NCBI GenBank assembly: GCA_045122255.1 | Contig: JBGVHJ010000063.1 | Coordinates: forward strand, 25,610 to 89,609 | DNA from: Eubacteriales bacterium | Lineage (GTDB): Bacteria; Bacillota; Clostridia; Oscillospirales; CAG-272 | DNA: 64,000 bases | Direction: 5' to 3' | Part shown: piece after piece, positions 19,769 through 40,288 of the stretch | Layout of the letters: every line of letters begins with the position of its first letter | How positions within the stretch are numbered: the stretch's first letter is position 1 | Made by a program: the position numbers and the translations under genes | The notes under the pieces: generated by a model | Told to the model about the DNA's origin: nothing | Database searches by the model: none | Seen by the model: only the letters and a program-made list of their open reading frames with translations

Positions 19769-19880
19769 CTACGGCTTTGCCGTAGATTTCACGCTCTCTT
19801 AGAGAGCATTTCACGTTGCAAAGCAACATTTCACATTTTGCGAAGCAAAATATTTCACCGCAAAAGCCACGGGCTTTTGC
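19769..19880 (-). repeat. Array of 5 perfect hairpins separated by 4 copies of GTGAAAT (minus-strand reading) between ricA and mutS
   Basis: Plus strand: ctacggc-ttt-gccgtag ATTTCAC gctctc-tta-gagagc ATTTCAC gttgc-aaa-gcaac ATTTCAC attttgc-gaa-gcaaaat ATTTCAC (c)gcaaaagcc-acg-ggcttttgc. Confidence 0.9.
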
Positions 19881-27898: not shown

Positions 27899-27996
27899 TA
27901 TTGACCTTTAATTGCCAAATGCGGCAAATAAAATCCTTTCAAAGCATATCTATAATTATTTTACACTATTTATATTAATTTTTCAAGTGGTATTTA

Positions 27997-29967: not shown

Positions 29968-29996
29968 TTGACATTAACGTAATTAAGTGTTATACT
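29968..29996 (+). promoter_or_regulatory. Promoter upstream of repeat-element copy 1 and tmcAL
   Basis: TTGACA (29968-29973), 17 nt, TGtTATACT (-10 at 29991-29996). Confidence 0.55.
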
Positions 29997-30033
29997 GTTA
30001 ATGGTCAAATTTTGATTTGCCGTAAAGATATAA

Positions 30034-30221
30034 AGTGATATTGTTGCTTCGCAACAGTGGTATTTCCCTTGCGGGAAGTGATATTGTTCAGCTTTGCTGA
30101 ACAGTGATATTCTATTCGCCACTTTAACTTGCGTAGCAAATACCACTCGGTGTAAGCCGAATATCACTGCGAAGCAATACCACTCGCCGCAGGCGAATAG
30201 AACTGCGCACCTTCGGTGCGC
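30034..30221. repeat. Composite motif-hairpin element, copy 1: 4 x AGTGRTATT (forward), then 5 x AATAYCACT-like (reverse), each separated by a perfect mini-hairpin
   Basis: Read directly from the sequence. The unit list is in the findings. Confidence 0.9.
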
Positions 30222-30237
30222 CAGAAAGGAGAGCAAT

Positions 30238-31446
30238 ATGAAAACCGTTGGCATCGTATGCGAATACAACCCTTTTCACACGGGGCATGCGCGGCAGATA
30301 GATATTCTGCGCAAGAGTGGCGCCGAGGTGATAATATGCGCTATGAGCGGCAATTTTTCAGAGCGCGGAGAGCTTACAGTTGCAGACAAATACACTCGCG
30401 CAGAGGCGGCTGTAAGATGCGGCGCGGATATAGTAGTTGAGCTTCCCTTTCCCTATTCTTCGCTTTCGGCAGAAGGATTCTGCTCTGCGGGCGTCCACAT
30501 TCTCTCGTCTCTTGGTTGCGATACTCTTTCATTTGGAAGCGAGAGCGCAGACGTGGCGCTTCTTCGTCGCGCGGCTGATATAGCTTCCTCTCCCGAATTC
30601 GTCTCGGATTATGCCGAGATCTGCAAAAATCAAGGCTCGGCAAGGGCTTATTTCGACCTGCTTTCCGAAAAGCTTGGCGAGGATGCAAGGCTTCTTTCAA
30701 ACGATATTTTGGGCATATCCTACGTTGCCGCCATCAAGCATCAAGGCTCCGTGATGGAGATATTCCCCATAAGTCGCGAGGGAGCGGCTTATAAGGAAAC
30801 CGAGCTCGGCGGCCCTTATCCCAGCGCGACCGCCATCAGAAAGGCGACCAATGAATCGCAGAAGGGCTTTTTCGCTATCAGCTGTGACAATATCCCCACC
30901 CCTGCCCTCGAAGCCTTGAAAAGGGCTCAAAATGACGGTCTCGCGCCGGTATTTACCGACAGTATCGGATCGGATATCCTCAGCTTTTTCAAGCTTATGT
31001 CACCCGACGAGATAATTTCTCGCGCTACTAAAAGATCGGGCGGCGGAGATTCGGTCTGCTGCGACGGATGCGGTATTGTAGAAAGAATATGCAACAGTGC
31101 AAAAGCATCAAAAGATCTCGGCGAAATGCTGAAGGCATCATACAATTCAAGATATCCCGATGCAAGGATCAACCGCGTAATTCTCTTCTCCATGCTTGGC
31201 GTATCGGATGCTTTTGAAAAATCGCTACCCGAATACACCCAGCTTTTAGGAGCAAGCGACGCGGGACGAAAATACCTCTCGAATATCCGCAAGTCTTCCG
31301 CTTTCCCCATAGTCACAAAGCCTGCCGACGCTCCCGAAGCAACGGCAACGGGTATCCTCCATCTTTCCGACTCACTTTACGCATCCGCTATGCCAAAGGA
31401 CGTAAATTTCGATTATTTTCTCAAAAAACACCCATATATGGGCTGA
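30238..31446 (+). CDS. tmcAL: tRNA(Met) cytidine acetate ligase (YlbM/TmcAL family nucleotidyltransferase)
   Basis: MKTVGIVCEYNPFHTGHARQI matches the YlbM N-terminus, and SD AAAGGAGAG lies at 30225-30233. The 48 codons upstream in the track ORF merely translate the repeat array. Confidence 0.85.
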   Translation: MKTVGIVCEYNPFHTGHARQIDILRKSGAEVIICAMSGNFSERGELTVADKYTRAEAAVRCGADIVVELPFPYSSLSAEGFCSAGVHILSSLGCDTLSFGSESADVALLRRAADIASSPEFVSDYAEICKNQGSARAYFDLLSEKLGEDARLLSNDILGISYVAAIKHQGSVMEIFPISREGAAYKETELGGPYPSATAIRKATNESQKGFFAISCDNIPTPALEALKRAQNDGLAPVFTDSIGSDILSFFKLMSPDEIISRATKRSGGGDSVCCDGCGIVERICNSAKASKDLGEMLKASYNSRYPDARINRVILFSMLGVSDAFEKSLPEYTQLLGASDAGRKYLSNIRKSSAFPIVTKPADAPEATATGILHLSDSLYASAMPKDVNFDYFLKKHPYMG

Positions 31447-38977: not shown

Positions 38978-39028
38978 AAAAAATCGGCTGCCGATGCCCA
39001 ACTTCTCATAAGGAAGTTGGGCAGTTTT
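38978..39028. terminator. rhaA terminator region (two adjacent hairpins, usable from either strand)
   Basis: ATCGG-CTG-CCGAT (38983-38995) is preceded by A6. GCCCAACTTC-TCATAAG-GAAGTTGGGC (38996-39022) is followed by AGTTTTA. Confidence 0.7.
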
Positions 39029-39193
39029 ATTCGCCTGCGGCGAGTTCTATTGCTTCGCAGTGATATTCGTCTTGCGACGAGTGGTATTCGCTACGCGAGT
39101 TTAGGAGGCGAATAAAATATCACTAAAGCCGTAGGCTTTAATATCACTGTTGCGTAAGCGGCAATATCACTCCGACGAAGTCGGAATATAACT
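39027..39193. repeat. Composite motif-hairpin element, copy 2 (opposite orientation to copy 1)
   Basis: cgcc-tgc-ggcg AGTTCTATT gc-ttc-gc AGTGATATT cgtc-ttgc-gacg AGTGGTATT cgc-tac-gcg AGTTTAGGA GGCGAATAA AATATCACT aaagcc-gta-ggcttt AATATCACT gttgcgtaagcggc(aa) (AA)TATCACT ccgac-gaa-gtcgg AATATAACT. Confidence 0.9.
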
Positions 39194-39221
39194 TGACTAA
39201 TTGTCGATTTTGATGTATAAT
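39193..39221 (+). promoter_or_regulatory. Promoter of the four-helix-bundle gene; the -35 abuts the last repeat unit
   Basis: TTGACT (39193-39198), 17 nt, TATAAT (39216-39221). Confidence 0.55.
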
Positions 39222-39239
39222 ATTTGCAGAGGTGATGTT

Positions 39240-39596
39240 ATGTCAAACAGCGTTATGAGAGATAAAGCAAAGGATTTTGCAAAGAATATTGTCTTCCTCT
39301 GCCGTAATATGAAGGCAGAGCATAAAGAAACGGTGCTTATAAATCAACTGCTGCGTTCAGGCACTTCCATTGGTGCGAACATTCACGAAGCACAATATGC
39401 ACAAGGTACAAAAGACTTTATATCTAAACTTGAAATTGCTCAGAAGGAATGCTATGAAACAGAATATTGGCTTGAGCTTTTATTTGAAACCGGTTGTATT
39501 GAAGAATGTATTTACAAGTCTATTCAGAACGATTGCGGAGCAATTCGCAGAATGTTGATTGCTTCCTTGAACACAATTAAATCAAAACAAGAATAG
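39240..39596 (+). CDS. Four-helix-bundle protein (23S rRNA intervening-sequence protein / Avd-like family)
   Basis: MSNSVMRDKAKDFAKNIVFLCRNM...LLRSGTSIGANIHEAQ...YWLELL is the family signature as I recall it. ATG 39240 follows AGAGGTGAT. Confidence 0.75.
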   Translation: MSNSVMRDKAKDFAKNIVFLCRNMKAEHKETVLINQLLRSGTSIGANIHEAQYAQGTKDFISKLEIAQKECYETEYWLELLFETGCIEECIYKSIQNDCGAIRRMLIASLNTIKSKQE

Positions 39597-39683
39597 GGGT
39601 ATGGGCTCTGCCCGAACCTTTGTAATACAAAGGCGAAACTGGCGATAAATATGAAATACTACGAATTGGCGGGATAGTTATTT

Positions 39684-40142
39684 ATGTGTATGATTTGTGA
39701 TAGAATCAAAATGATCAAGCAAGGGACGAACCCTTGGTTTGTCAAGGAATTAGAAACCGGATACGTTGTCATTGGAGATAATCAACATTTTAATGGCTAT
39801 ACATTATTCCTTTGCAAAGAACACAAGACAGAACTCTTTCAATTAGACTATTCTTCAAAAATGAAATTTCTGGAAGAAATGTCCGTTGTTGCCGAAGCCG
39901 TAGCAAAAGCGTTCAACGCTGAGAAAATGAACTATGAGTTATTAGGTAATGGCGATACCCATCTGCATTGGCATTTGTTTCCCAGAGTAAGCGGAGATTT
40001 AGAAGGCTACGGAAACAACGGGAAGGGACCTGTGTGGTGGTATCCAATGGAAAAAATGTACAGTTCGGAGAATCGTCCTGATAAAGAAAGGTTGAATGCC
40101 TTGAAGAGAAATTTGGCAGAAGAATTGGAAAAACTTTTATGA
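39684..40142 (+). CDS. HIT-family (histidine triad) protein
   Basis: The histidine triad is GDTHLHWHLFPR. Confidence 0.8.
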   Translation: MCMICDRIKMIKQGTNPWFVKELETGYVVIGDNQHFNGYTLFLCKEHKTELFQLDYSSKMKFLEEMSVVAEAVAKAFNAEKMNYELLGNGDTHLHWHLFPRVSGDLEGYGNNGKGPVWWYPMEKMYSSENRPDKERLNALKRNLAEELEKLL

Positions 40143-40155
40143 TTATAAATAAACG

Positions 40156-40185
40156 CCCCGACAGATCTTTTGAAATCTGTCGGGG
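40156..40185. terminator. Terminator between the convergent HIT gene and membrane-protein gene
   Basis: CCCCGACAGAT-CTTTTGAA-ATCTGTCGGGG, an 11-bp stem. Confidence 0.7.
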
Positions 40186-40288
40186 TTATCTATTTGTTTC
40201 TGCAGATCAAATTTAAGTCTTATGAGCAAACTTCCTTATGAGAACCAGCATATGACGCCGATTTTTTATATTATAAGGTAGCTTTCGG

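Follow-up and report, generated by a model that had tools for sequence, protein, structure and literature searches.

The dense array of short hairpins that precedes tmcAL in the genome of an Eubacteriales bacterium (CAG-272) raises a simple question: was this structure made for tmcAL, or did it arrive there from elsewhere? The window, that is, the whole stretch of DNA analysed here, comprises 64,000 nt of contig JBGVHJ010000063.1 (positions 25,610-89,609). A first-pass annotation had described nine copies of a 9-mer and eight perfect stems at 30034-30221, and re-reading of the sequence found them exactly so: AGTGRTATT or its complement is matched exactly by seven of the nine 9-mers and in degenerate form by the other two (at 30121 and 30196), and the stems, of 2-7 bp, are perfect in all eight cases. 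When the suggested enrichment of the motif was checked within the window, the exact 9-mer appeared well above chance (13 occurrences against 0.81 expected, a 16-fold excess, with a maximum of 4 in 100 shuffles), and two clusters hold 12 of the 13. Folding z-scores of the array ranged from -5.2 to -6.6 on either strand. As also anticipated, no coding sequence explains the repeats: tmcAL starts at 30238 and encodes 402 aa, the same length as its homologues, so that neither an N-terminal extension of the ORF nor the 101-aa antisense ORF is needed. Our analysis shows that the − strand at ~30009-30221 carries an ORF-less copy of a mosaic, multicopy element of gut Clostridia with a Gut-1 core (Table 1).

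Table 1. Position and composition of the family loci and their surroundings in the window
Feature	Position	Strand	Particulars
Canonical single-arm Gut-1 copy	19781-19860	−	GUGAAAU linkers; between a small gene and mutS; 63.8 bits
Promoter-like site	29968-29996	+	TTGACA-17-TATACT with upstream TG; scan, 11/12 matches; context, outside the element
Flank segment past the last linker	30009-30033	−	Reads CGGCAAATCAAAATTT on the − strand; common to L029 and L085
A arm	30034-30111	−	Four linkers (AATAYCACT on the − strand), three perfect hairpins; Gut-1 match on the + strand, 45.4 bits
First half of the array, as read	from 30034	+	AGTGATATT 30034; gttgc-ttc-gcaac; AGTGGTATT 30056; tccc-ttgc-ggga; AGTGATATT 30077; gttcagc-ttt-gctgaac; AGTGATATT 30103; ctattcgcc
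Second half, start	from 30121	+	ACTTTAACT 30121; tgc-gta-gca; AATACCACT 30139; cgg-tgtaag-ccg; AATATCACT 30160; gc-gaa-gc
Second half, end	from 30176	+	AATACCACT 30176; cgcc-gca-ggcg; AATAGAACT 30196; gcgcacc-ttc-ggtgcgc 30205-30221
Helix P1	30109-30120 with 30192-30203		11 Watson-Crick pairs (30110-30120 / 30192-30202) plus a terminal G.T on the − strand
B arm (Gut-1 motif proper)	30121-30204	−	Linkers AGTTCTATT, AGTGGTATT, AGTGATATT, AGTGGTATT, then degenerate AGTTAAAGT
T hairpin	30205-30221	−	gcgcacc-gaa-ggtgcgc; terminator-like on the − strand only, AGTTCTATT after it
Split rhaA terminator	38978-38988 and 40257-40267	+	Left half AAAAAATCGGC, right half GCCGATTTTTT; 1256-bp unit between the arms
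Full-length unit of the same family	38994-40249	+	1256 bp; 9 kb from the tmcAL copy
T hairpin of the 1256-bp unit	38996-39022	+	
16-bp terminal inverted repeats of the 1256-bp unit	39003-39018 and 40229-40244		TTCTCATAAGGAAGTT vs AACTTCCTTATGAGAA; also in L032
B arm, centre and A arm of the 1256-bp unit	39023-39097, 39098-39115 and 39116-39193	+	
Promoter of the 1256-bp unit	39193-39221	+	
PF05635 four-helix-bundle (4HB) gene	39240-39596	+	
Conserved segment in the 1256-bp unit	39597-39650	+	
HIT-domain gene	39684-40142	+	

The array as a Gut-1 composite

The first-pass annotation could not match the array to a described family, but in fact both of its halves match the Rfam family Gut-1 (RF01706), just below threshold and on opposite strands. 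The covariance-model scores were 45.4 bits for 30033-30115 (+) and 44.1 bits for 30205-30135 (−), with E ~1e-5 for the whole window; the gathering cut-off of 50 bits, missed by both arms at tmcAL, is passed by the single-arm copy close to mutS. Together with a second inverted pair at 39022-39194 (locus 2), the window holds three loci of the family in 64 kb. The linker of the tmcAL copy, (A)GUGRUAU(U), is one base off the Gut-1 consensus GUGAAAU and, as in Gut-1, three hairpins with covarying stems lie between conserved linkers, the covariation being seen across 69-96 elements. The likeness extends to the three or four variable hairpins, to a conserved GUGAAAU or GUGAUAU(U) linker and to an occurrence only in gut Clostridia and gut metagenomes. 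Moreover, the B arm at tmcAL is ~85% identical to seed members of the GUGAUAUU type, and in two seed rows (BAAZ01000095.1 and BAAZ01025322.1) the linkers are of the form GUGAUAUU, the hairpin upstream is shared, and both the centre GGCGAAUAU and AAUAUCAC repeats occur.

Gut-1 has stood since 2010 as a motif of unknown function reported from human gut sequences (Weinberg et al. 2010, PMC2864571). Rfam classes it as sRNA, its authors having scored it 'RNA? = Y' on covariation grounds, and rows of the published seed already contain a terminator-like hairpin upstream, a GGCGAAUA centre and AAUAUCAC repeats within the flank that the model leaves out (PMC2864571). The Rfam model, however, spans one arm only, whereas the composite described here has two. 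Weinberg et al. 2010, the single paper found to mention Gut-1, describes neither a mirror-image second arm nor a closing helix P1, and no multicopy or mobile behaviour, terminator insertion or linkage to PF05635.

Architecture and covariation of the family

At least 119 related loci were found, each with three consecutive exact linkers (~0.15 expected by our own estimate), and MAGs of gut Clostridia account for 115 of them, with several loci per MAG among the matches listed. The shared architecture has first hairpin T, which resembles a terminator; next comes a Gut-1 arm, closed by helix P1 (12 bp, covarying), and then a mirror-image arm. In both arms, the repeat unit is the 9-nt linker AATATCACT followed by a perfect Watson-Crick mini-hairpin capped C(GNA/GNRA)G, and the caps lie in each arm on the strand that reads AATATCACT. 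Linker clusters always run '+..+ then -..-', never reversed, and the 69 composites have a modal form of 4+4 linkers. A repeat family with a conserved short linker and variable stems, as first suspected at tmcAL, was thus recovered both across elements and at two more loci of the window.

The stems vary from unit to unit and from copy to copy, the 69 elements having 20-59 distinct spacers at each hairpin position. Their basal three pairs are paired in 96-100% of cases, compared with 58-67% when the arms are shuffled, with 3-5 pair types at each position. Stem pairs amount to 1506 Watson-Crick, 16 G.T and 12 A.C, that is, ~98-99% strict Watson-Crick, and since G.T pairs are about as frequent as A.C ones, the stems show no tolerance to wobbles; by arm, the G.T to A.C ratio is 13:7 in A and 3:5 in B. 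The polarity of the loops read on the same strand is almost absolute, with 102 G..A against 1 T..C in the A arm and 77 T..C against 0 G..A in the B arm. Helix P1 is present at ≥10.5/12 in 63 of the 69 elements, its variable position covaries (A-T, C-G, T-A) and in one element (L058) the whole arm is swapped. Linker variants co-occur as complements between the two arms (z 5.4, 0/2000 shuffles).

At tmcAL, the hairpin-less spacer ctattcgcc supplies one strand of the long-range helix P1 (11 bp in this copy); the second strand shares positions with the B1 linker and with the 3' arm of the first B hairpin. A-arm loops on the − strand are GAA, GCAA and AAA, the family type being G..A (GNA/GNRA), and the B-arm hairpins on this strand read cgcc-tgc-ggcg, gc-ttc-gc, cgg-cttaca-ccg and tgc-tac-gca; in alignment, this B arm is ~85% identical to that of locus 2. 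The T hairpin is followed on the sense strand of tmcAL by cagaaaggag, with no T-run. Alignment with L029 and L085 shows that both share this T hairpin, with compensatory changes, and that homology runs from it to ~30009-30033 and is lost beyond.

Some other readings of the array were discarded. A 'ladder' of A-arm and B-arm linkers pairing in register was rejected as a specific fold because complementarity is ~8.5/9 in every register and such pairing would cross helix P1. A central divergent promoter did not hold either: the sequences read have a TA[N]AAT hexamer with no usable -35 or TG extension. The 9-mer is not known to match DnaA boxes, CRP or Rex half-sites or lambda Int arm sites in register, and these readings were dropped.

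The tmcAL copy is an insertion

Five tmcAL orthologues (72-77% identity; L120-L125) lack the array, and in the two with a readable promoter (L120 and L122, both carrying TTGACA-17-TATAAT) the distance from the -10 hexamer to the ATG is 26-38 nt. Comparison with these loci therefore shows the tmcAL copy to be an insertion of ~213 nt, placed after the promoter of the gene and ahead of its Shine-Dalgarno sequence. The TTGACA-17-TGtTATACT promoter proposed for the gene was recovered by our scan, and this site is probably the promoter of tmcAL, now parted from it by the insertion; tmcAL would in this way gain a structured leader of ~240 nt. As a functional assignment, however, 'tmcAL leader' had to be abandoned, since the array is missing from the orthologous loci of relatives, which is where the first-pass annotation had looked for a refutation of an element specific to tmcAL. 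The subfamily of the tmcAL copy is moreover present at an unrelated locus (L029/L085).

In comparison with the usual placement of the family behind genes, the tmcAL copy shows a minority orientation, antisense to tmcAL. This would be the sole orientation tolerable at this place, because in the opposite one the T hairpin and the U-rich linker after it would stop transcripts short of tmcAL. Neither a terminal inverted repeat nor flanking terminator arms were detected at this copy, and its route of insertion is consequently proposed by analogy. The array is a stray copy of a mobile element, and no regulator made for tmcAL. For this locus the result is a deflationary one: the array is an accidental insertion and therefore should not be annotated as a regulator of tmcAL.

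A mobile unit that probably lands within terminator hairpins

The full-length unit of 1256 bp in the same window splits the rhaA terminator, one arm lying on either side of it; in orthologous rhaA loci the terminator at this position is intact. The unit is flanked by locus-specific sequence, with an A-tract arm at one end and, at the other, an arm followed by a T-tract. It is found again in six or more contexts whose flanks are unrelated, at 95-100% identity over promoter-4HB, HIT and 3' flank, the array being 83-100% and the DCS 84-89% identical. An identical 4HB protein occurs on at least 76 contigs, in comparison with a single contig for an identical tmcAL protein. Moreover, terminator-like inverted repeats enclose 17 of 55 elements, compared with 8% for controls. 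To judge by all these copies, the Gut-1 composite family is mobile. Since its copies bring terminators and outward promoters with them, the family probably alters the transcription units of abundant gut bacteria and interrupts the assembly of metagenomes.

No clear or consistent target-site duplication was seen at the junctions of the 1256-bp unit, and no transposase or recombinase was identified in it, the PF05635 and HIT genes being its only ORFs; we know of no DNA-breaking activity for either protein. The only Y1 transposase genes seen, those of L285 and L128, resemble IS200-type insertions inside the unit and are not flanked by arrays; with the Y1 protein of L285 as query, tblastn gave no match in the window. 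When flanking ORFs were clustered in search of a recurrent transposase neighbour, only the PF05635 gene recurred. Our literature search returned no account of comparable elements that insert into terminator loops.

In the B-to-A frame, the left-hand gene is co-directional in 38 cases against 10, whatever the local GC skew, and across loci orientation agrees better with the neighbouring gene (79%) than with the skew (62%). An orientation set by replication was rejected: the two composites of the window are oppositely oriented although GC skew is uniformly negative. A defence system found no backing in PADLOC, negative for both the PF05635 and HIT proteins. A phage origin was also set aside: of 75 matches in viral contigs, nearly all fall in coding sequence with regular tandem repeats, spaced by 9, 12, 15 or 18 nt, and only ~1-3 resemble Gut-1.

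Folded DNA or sense-strand RNA

The explanation that we hold with moderate confidence is that the array is an ORF-less copy, that it was inserted at tmcAL, and that its family is a DNA mobile element of terminator hairpins selected as folded DNA. Such an element would land inside or directly after intrinsic-terminator hairpins, its gene-bearing form carrying the PF05635 and HIT genes and its short copies lacking them. Selection would act on folded DNA strands, either as extruded hairpins or as single-stranded DNA, rather than on one sense RNA, and the linkers would serve as recognition sites for a protein. Folded DNA as the object of selection is suggested by the dyad symmetry of the arrays, by stems that keep strictly to Watson-Crick pairs, with no more G.T than would match the rarity of A.C, and by linkers that remain reverse complements of each other between the two arms while they change. 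The first-pass annotation had offered both a structured RNA module and a repeat family recognised as ssDNA; the second option fits the evidence better, and a plain RNA less so.

A structured RNA of the sense strand, as Gut-1 was first proposed to be, is possible but on balance doubtful. Read-through or 3'-UTR sequence of the upstream gene would fold into T, P1 and the arrays, with the linkers binding a protein (as a sponge or assembly platform) or the hairpins blocking exonucleases and stabilising or insulating transcripts, and DNA mobility would merely be how the RNA gene spreads. The protein sponge raised by the first-pass annotation has so far gained no support. Besides the Rfam class sRNA and the authors' 'RNA? 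= Y', what leans towards such an RNA is the polarity relative to the upstream gene (38/48, independent of GC skew), the 7 G.T to 1 A.C mismatches of P1 on the usually-sense strand, and the presence on that strand of GNRA tetraloops (GCAA, GUAA, GAAA) and tandem G.A pairs in the A arm, one hairpin variant having tandem G.A/A.G. RNAfold of locus 2 also gives T, P1 and local hairpins (z -5.8). However, the arrays come after the T hairpin, which is followed by a U-rich linker or by a true T-run, and no promoter separates the two. With 16 G.T and 12 A.C among 1506 Watson-Crick pairs, the stems do not tolerate wobbles. Moreover, B-arm loops on the sense strand are UNC/UNNC, the exact complements of the stable caps, 2-bp stems like gc-uuc-gc are not credible as RNA hairpins, and the sense transcript of tmcAL carries the opposite strand. 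Altogether, the sequence statistics on Gut-1 as an RNA of one sense strand appear equivocal or leaning against it.

A narrower proposal, compatible with a folded-DNA mobile element and in our opinion rather unlikely in this specific form, is that the PF05635 4HB protein encoded by the element, possibly with HIT, has the arrays as its nucleic-acid partner, in a small selfish unit akin to the ORF-bearing intervening sequences of 23S rRNA. The copy with the gene would be autonomous and ORF-less copies, such as that at tmcAL, its derivatives. The association is close in metagenomic data, where the element lies directly upstream in 64 of 68 4HB homologues (≥74% identity) and in 28-29 of 31 distinct upstream flanks. 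In the protein search for PF05635 homologues, the matches listed were close ones, of ≥89% identity. In the genome set, the gene occurs in 8/69 elements, always at the A end, co-oriented and in at least six contexts, and L049 looks like an ORF-deletion derivative in which the segment downstream of the ORF was kept. The closest solved structure, 2RLD, has five chains, and the arms have 4-5 linkers each; PF05635 also resembles the DGR accessory protein Avd (PMC10053308). Nevertheless, most elements lack the gene, its product has no PADLOC match and in most copies it is driven by its own promoter downstream of the arrays. The 4HB protein is neutral (pI 6.7), unlike Avd, which is basic. Neither is any activity known for the family, and S23p is reported to be probably not made in vivo in the paper on the Coxiella IVS (PMC4990558).

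A still more daring formulation, which we judge unlikely, would make Gut-1, instead of a small RNA standing on its own, the cis-acting core of undescribed small mobile elements of gut Clostridia that insert at the apexes of intrinsic-terminator hairpins without a canonical transposase, the autonomous form encoding only a PF05635 protein (with or without HIT) that recognises the arrays as folded ssDNA. If true, this would give the long-orphan '23S rRNA intervening-sequence protein' family a definite nucleic acid to bind and a part in mobility.

It is quite improbable that the array works as a double-stranded operator or iteron, with a protein reading 9-bp sites, four per orientation, to control a promoter at the A end. 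The last A linker does overlap the outward -35 in many copies, with TTGACT-17-TATAAT before the 4HB gene and TTGCAC-17-TATACT before unrelated small genes, and linker variants shift in parallel in both arms. The sites, however, are not helically phased, because their spacing varies from 16 to 26 bp; an operator gives no reason for spacers that are perfect covarying palindromes with strand-specific caps, and copies of the tmcAL type lack an adjacent promoter on the A side. Finally, a dedicated cis-regulatory leader of tmcAL (riboswitch, protein-binding attenuator or mRNA stability element) is hardly credible: the array would indeed be in the mRNA, between a good promoter-like site and the Shine-Dalgarno, but it is missing at five orthologous loci, is antisense relative to the usual orientation of the family, and has relatives at unrelated loci of the window and in >100 other genomes.

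Beyond tmcAL, Gut-1 is found in many gut Clostridia MAGs as one half of a dyad-symmetric composite, which behaves as mobile DNA landing in terminator hairpins and travels with a PF05635 gene. This turns an orphan motif into a testable system, with questions on a linker-binding protein, on DNA or RNA as its substrate and on movement without a known transposase. It also carries a warning, as covariation alone can take structured mobile DNA for an RNA gene.

Relation to known repeats and mobile elements

REP, BIME and REPIN sequences are short extragenic palindromes, multicopy and usually found after the 3' ends of genes as inverted doublets, which are thought to act as folded single-stranded DNA with each half on the opposite strand. 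Gut-1 composites are likewise extragenic, multicopy, inverted doublets, and always convergent. In REPs, however, it is the sequence of the palindrome that is conserved, whereas Gut-1 composites keep the 9-nt linker and vary the stems, and no RAYT-like gene flanked by arrays was found in the window or around the Y1 genes of L285 and L128.

Insertion at or in a stem-loop is shared with hairpin-targeting IS110/IS1111 elements such as ISPpu9 and ISPpu10, which enter REPs (PMC12288879, bioRxiv 10.64898/2026.03.19.712850), and insertion into or beside a stem-loop instead of plain sequence with IS1397 and group IIC introns (terminators or attC). All these elements encode a DEDD/DDE transposase or a reverse transcriptase, in contrast with the Gut-1 unit of 0.2-1.3 kb, which has neither and carries four-helix-bundle and HIT genes only, or no gene. 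Another parallel is the Coxiella IVS, a selfish insertion of 0.4-0.7 kb, bounded by inverted repeats and located in a stem-loop, with a PF05635 four-helix-bundle protein as sole ORF (PMC4990558). The IVS, however, resides in helices 25 or 45 of 23S rRNA and is excised from the RNA by RNase III, whereas the Gut-1 unit occupies intergenic terminators and has hairpin-linker arrays; the likeness is one of ORF and layout.

Two families of RNA arrays were considered and rejected. A type III toxin-antitoxin (ToxIN-like) array does not fit units that differ in sequence, with no toxin gene and a blank PADLOC result for the adjacent proteins. In a CsrB/RsmZ-type sponge the conserved part is the loop GGA, and here it is the linker between hairpins, the loops being variable GNA/GNRA or their complements. 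Pneumococcal BOX elements are modular intergenic mosaics with a few module types in variable number, some copies of which supply terminators or promoters (PMC3049150). They have no sequence relation to Gut-1, and their modules are conserved in sequence and not in structure only. With TIR elements and MITEs, the 1256-bp unit shares terminal inverted repeats, copies of high identity in unrelated flanks and empty orthologous sites.

A composite Gut-1 element ahead of tmcAL

The layout of 9-mers and mini-hairpins that the first-pass annotation gave ahead of tmcAL agrees exactly with the window sequence, and its promoter-like site at 29968-29996 was found again by scan. It was also right that no coding sequence explains the repeats, since tmcAL encodes 402 aa from 30238, a length as in its homologues. 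The 64-kb window has 13 copies of the exact 9-mer, or linker, where 0.81 would be expected and shuffled sequence reached at most 4; 12 of the copies are grouped in two clusters, and the array region folds far better than shuffled sequence on both strands (z -5.2 to -6.6). The gap between two minus-strand genes contains a lone exact AGTGGTATT at 27986-27994, with a terminator-like hairpin (gcggaggagaa...ttctcctcc) shortly downstream of it; this copy may be a remnant or a chance occurrence.

What did not stand was the claim that the array fits no described family, as both halves match Gut-1 (Rfam RF01706), each under its gathering score of 50 bits (see table). A canonical copy above this threshold, with GUGAAAU linkers and a single arm, lies upstream of mutS. 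This copy sits between mutS and a 126-aa gene, in an apparent miaB-...-mutS gene string, oriented as the genes are and with a 9-bp hairpin ahead of it. The window also holds a second inverted Gut-1 pair, here called locus 2. The 2010 publication of Gut-1 (PMC2864571) presented it as a candidate non-coding RNA from human-gut metagenomes only and gave no further description. The published seed alignment already includes GUGAUAUU-type members, which show the same upstream hairpin (labelled terminator in the alignment), the same GGCGAAUAU centre and, in the unmodelled flank, AAUAUCAC repeats. Together with the Rfam matches, these features identify the tmcAL-side arm as Gut-1 on the minus strand (B arm), and the other as an undescribed mirror image (A arm). 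The array is real and belongs to this known, uncharacterised family, in a composite form not described before.

Coordinates of the features discussed; L-numbers are comparison loci from other genomes, metagenomes or viral contigs
Feature	Position or locus	Remarks
AGTGRTATT 9-mers	30034, 30056, 30077, 30103	three perfect hairpins in between
Reverse-complement-type 9-mers	30121, 30139, 30160, 30176, 30196	perfect hairpin after each; 30121 and 30196 degenerate
Final hairpin	30205-30221	ends 16 nt ahead of tmcAL ATG (30238)
Helix P1, tmcAL copy	30109-30120 with 30192-30203	
Gut-1 matches, tmcAL copy	30033-30115 (+); 30205-30135 (-)	45.4 bits; 44.1 bits
Canonical Gut-1 copy	19781-19860 (-)	63.8 bits
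Gut-1 pair, locus 2	39022-39092 (+); 39194-39112 (-)	
Full unit	38994-40249	1256 bp; Gut-1 composite, PF05635 gene, HIT-domain gene
Terminal inverted repeat of unit	39003-39018 and 40229-40244	16 bp
IS200-type Y1 (PF01797) genes	L285 2553-3026; L128 1267-1680	
Elements after tRNA genes	L006, L008, L017, L020, L027, L028, L031, L064, L065, L091, L115	T/B side always nearest tRNA
Conserved cassette, ~55 nt	L008, L017, L027, L083 (two copies)	right of A arm; TTGCAC/TTGCGT-17-TATACT/TATAAT, GGCGGTGA, ATG
57-nt segment beside ORF-less elements	L049 5605-5705; L024; L054, L071, L032	inverted in L054, L071 and L032

Architecture and distribution of the family

A scan for three consecutive exact linkers, with one genome per species, gave at least 119 stretches against some 0.15 expected by chance (our estimate), and 115 of the 119 listed came from MAGs of gut or rumen Clostridia (Acutalibacteraceae, Oscillospiraceae, Christensenellaceae, Faecousia and others). 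Among the matches listed, plus copies of the linker always precede minus copies, never the reverse, and 69 composite elements were found, most commonly with 4+4 linkers. The element is polar, running from B to A on the minus strand for the tmcAL copy and on the plus strand for locus 2. From the left, it comprises a GC-rich hairpin (T), AGTTNTATT cgcc-loop-ggcg AGTKRTATT gc-ttc-gc AGTGATATT cggc-loop-gccg AGTGRTATT cgc-ttc-gcg, followed by AGTTTnnr-GGCGAATAN' and by AATATCACT hairpin AATATCACT hairpin AATATCACT hairpin AATATCACT. A 12-nt stretch, GTTNTATTCGCC, spanning linker 1 and the 5' arm of hairpin 1, is complementary to the central GGCGAATAN'AAT about 92 nt away, and this long-range helix (P1) scores at least 10.5 out of 12 in 63 of the 69 elements. 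Its free position N/N' is A-T, C-G or T-A, and in L058 the whole arm is replaced on both sides. The hairpin stems also covary, with three to five pair types at each basal position, the three basal pairs being formed in 96-100% of cases compared with 58-67% (maximum 75%) after random exchange of arms between elements; B hairpins one and two are nearly invariant.

The 9-mer triplet was also found in 75 viral contigs (L206-L280, many of them giant-virus MAGs), nearly all as evenly spaced tandem repeats (9, 12, 15 or 18 nt between units) that are presumably coding and bear no relation to Gut-1.

Insertion at the tmcAL locus

The array had been placed in a predicted tmcAL leader, a reading that the orthologous loci contradict. 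Four TmcAL proteins with 72-77% identity, from five distinct loci (L120-L125, L121 duplicating L120), were compared, and the array is absent from all five. In the two loci with a complete upstream region and a readable promoter, L120 and L122, the -10 hexamer of a TTGACA-17-TATAAT promoter lies only 26-38 nt from the ATG; the equivalent promoter of the window is 241 nt upstream and the element occupies the gap. Members of this subfamily are also found in L029 and L085, where the neighbouring genes are quite different. They have in common with the tmcAL copy the T hairpin, of sequence gcgcRccgaaggYgcgc, as well as the arms and some 35 nt past the last linker; outside this stretch, homology to the window ends on both sides. 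The absence from orthologues and the recurrence between unrelated genes delimit an insertion of about 213 nt (~30009-30221), and the array at this locus is, on comparative grounds, an incidental insertion. Hairpin T is terminator-like on the minus strand, whereas on the tmcAL sense strand it is followed by cagaaaggag and is not terminator-like, so only the present orientation would be tolerable between promoter and gene. Neither terminal repeats nor split-terminator flanks were found for this copy. On the minus strand, downstream of the element, a perfect (12/12) TTGACA-17-TATAAT promoter-like site (29877-29849) points toward the YceD/DUF177-L32 genes, and the sites on each side place the element between two divergent promoters.

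A 1256-bp unit between the arms of terminators

Behind the composite at locus 2 lie a promoter and a gene (39240-39596) for a 118-aa four-helix-bundle (4HB) protein, PF05635/TIGR02436. An identical 4HB protein is encoded in at least 76 contigs, compared with one for the identical TmcAL protein. In ten of these contigs homology to the window begins at hairpin T, and in seven it runs through the 4HB gene, across a conserved segment of 57 nt and through a HIT-domain gene (PF01230), extending some 107 nt past the latter in six and ending there in L288. Promoter-4HB, HIT gene and 3' flank are 95-100% identical, the array 83-100% and the 57-nt segment 84-89%. The sequences outside the unit, upstream and downstream, are unrelated among contigs, giving at least six other contexts (L281-L290).

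In every context the unit has a locus-specific A-tract plus arm on its left and the complementary arm plus T-tract on its right (AAAAAATGACCTGCC ... GGCAGGTCATTTTTT in L282, AAAAAATCGGC ... GCCGATTTTTT in the window), so that a bidirectional terminator of the host has one arm on each side of it; in the window this terminator is that of rhaA. Orthologues of RhaA (93% and 90% identity) keep an intact terminator exactly at the position of the unit, with the next gene 45-82 nt off. Short ORF-less elements are likewise nested, within inverted repeats of 17 (L071), 16 (L094), 14 (L054) and 13 nt (L015 and L106). With a terminator-like filter, 17 of 55 elements were nested, against 8% of mismatched controls, and a further 9 directly follow a complete terminator. 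By these comparisons the family behaves as mobile DNA with terminators as its landing sites. The best-supported mechanism is that of a structured-DNA mobile element which would target terminator hairpins and have the arrays of linkers and hairpins as its cis-acting core. No target duplication was found at element junctions, and no transposase or recombinase of the element was identified at the loci analysed. The only HUH enzyme seen near the family is an IS200-type Y1 transposase, encoded in L285 and L128 directly after the HIT stop codon, within the unit; its gene has its own small hairpins, is not array-flanked and is probably an independent IS.

Selection on DNA or on RNA

An unbiased parse of 96 elements returned 1506 Watson-Crick pairs, 16 G.T and 12 A.C (G.T:A.C 13:7 in the A arm and 3:5 in the B arm), so that the stems are strict Watson-Crick palindromes. 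RNA families usually tolerate wobble pairs, a tolerance that these stems do not show. On one and the same strand, A-arm loops are G..A in 102 cases (GAA, GCA, GTA, GCAA, GTAA, GAAA) and T..C in 1, and B-arm loops T..C in 77 and G..A in none, with a C-G loop-closing pair almost without exception. Such polar, mirror-imaged loops define a unit of AATATCACT + stem + C(GNA/GNRA)G cap, in opposite orientation on either side of the centre. C(GNA)G caps make exceptionally stable DNA mini-hairpins, a point that the first-pass annotation also made, and one of these hairpins, the 2-bp GCGAAGC, occupies one B position in most elements; to our knowledge, a 2-bp hairpin is not credible in RNA. Linker variants co-occur as complements within elements (z 5.4, 0/2000 shuffles), namely AATATAACT with AGTTATATT, AATACCACT with AGTGGTATT, and AATAACACT with AGTGTTATT; no register-specific pairing was found between A-arm and B-arm linkers. 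Jointly, the stem, loop and linker features are a better fit to selection on DNA, with both strands and dyad symmetry, than to selection on a single sense RNA.

A role as sense-strand RNA, which the wobble-free stems, the mirrored loops and the 2-bp hairpin make rather unlikely, is nevertheless kept as a serious rival, because P1 mismatches on the usually-sense strand are 7 G.T to 1 A.C, tandem G.A/A.G pairs are present on this strand in one variant A hairpin, and the element is polar relative to genes. Immediately to the left of hairpin T, the neighbouring gene points the same way as the element in 38 cases and the other way in 10, regardless of local GC skew. Of the 78 composite elements, 11 have a tRNA gene, of several different kinds, no more than 120 nt upstream. 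Further elements lie behind groEL, tsf and other genes that are probably highly expressed.

Associated genes and module exchange

In a proposal compatible with a mobile DNA element, the arrays could be the nucleic-acid partner of the PF05635 protein, perhaps with the HIT protein, a somewhat more doubtful idea that accords with an element directly upstream of 64 of 68 metagenomic 4HB homologues (28-29 of 31 distinct upstream flanks) and less with the neutral pI of the protein (6.7). Among the matches listed, 8 of the 69 genome elements carry a 4HB gene at their A end, and these represent at least six contexts. The nearest solved structure of the protein is 2RLD, a five-chain entry, and PADLOC returned no match for the 4HB or the HIT protein. 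In the metagenome loci L138 and L152 the B arm is present twice, flanking the centre, A arm and 4HB gene, and it looks as if B-type arrays had taken up this block, by insertion or by recombination between them.

Modules recombine among copies of the element. One subfamily is closed by a long AGAAAAGAGAGAG hairpin, and another has an outward promoter-plus-RBS cassette ahead of unrelated small genes, mostly for membrane proteins or lipoproteins, to which the element thus appears to donate promoter and RBS. The 57-nt segment after the 4HB stop codon (TAGGGGTATGGGC...TTTGTAATACAAAGGCGAAACTGGCGATAAA) also occurs beside ORF-less copies in either orientation; in L049 it starts 44 nt past the A arm, as if the 4HB ORF had been deleted.
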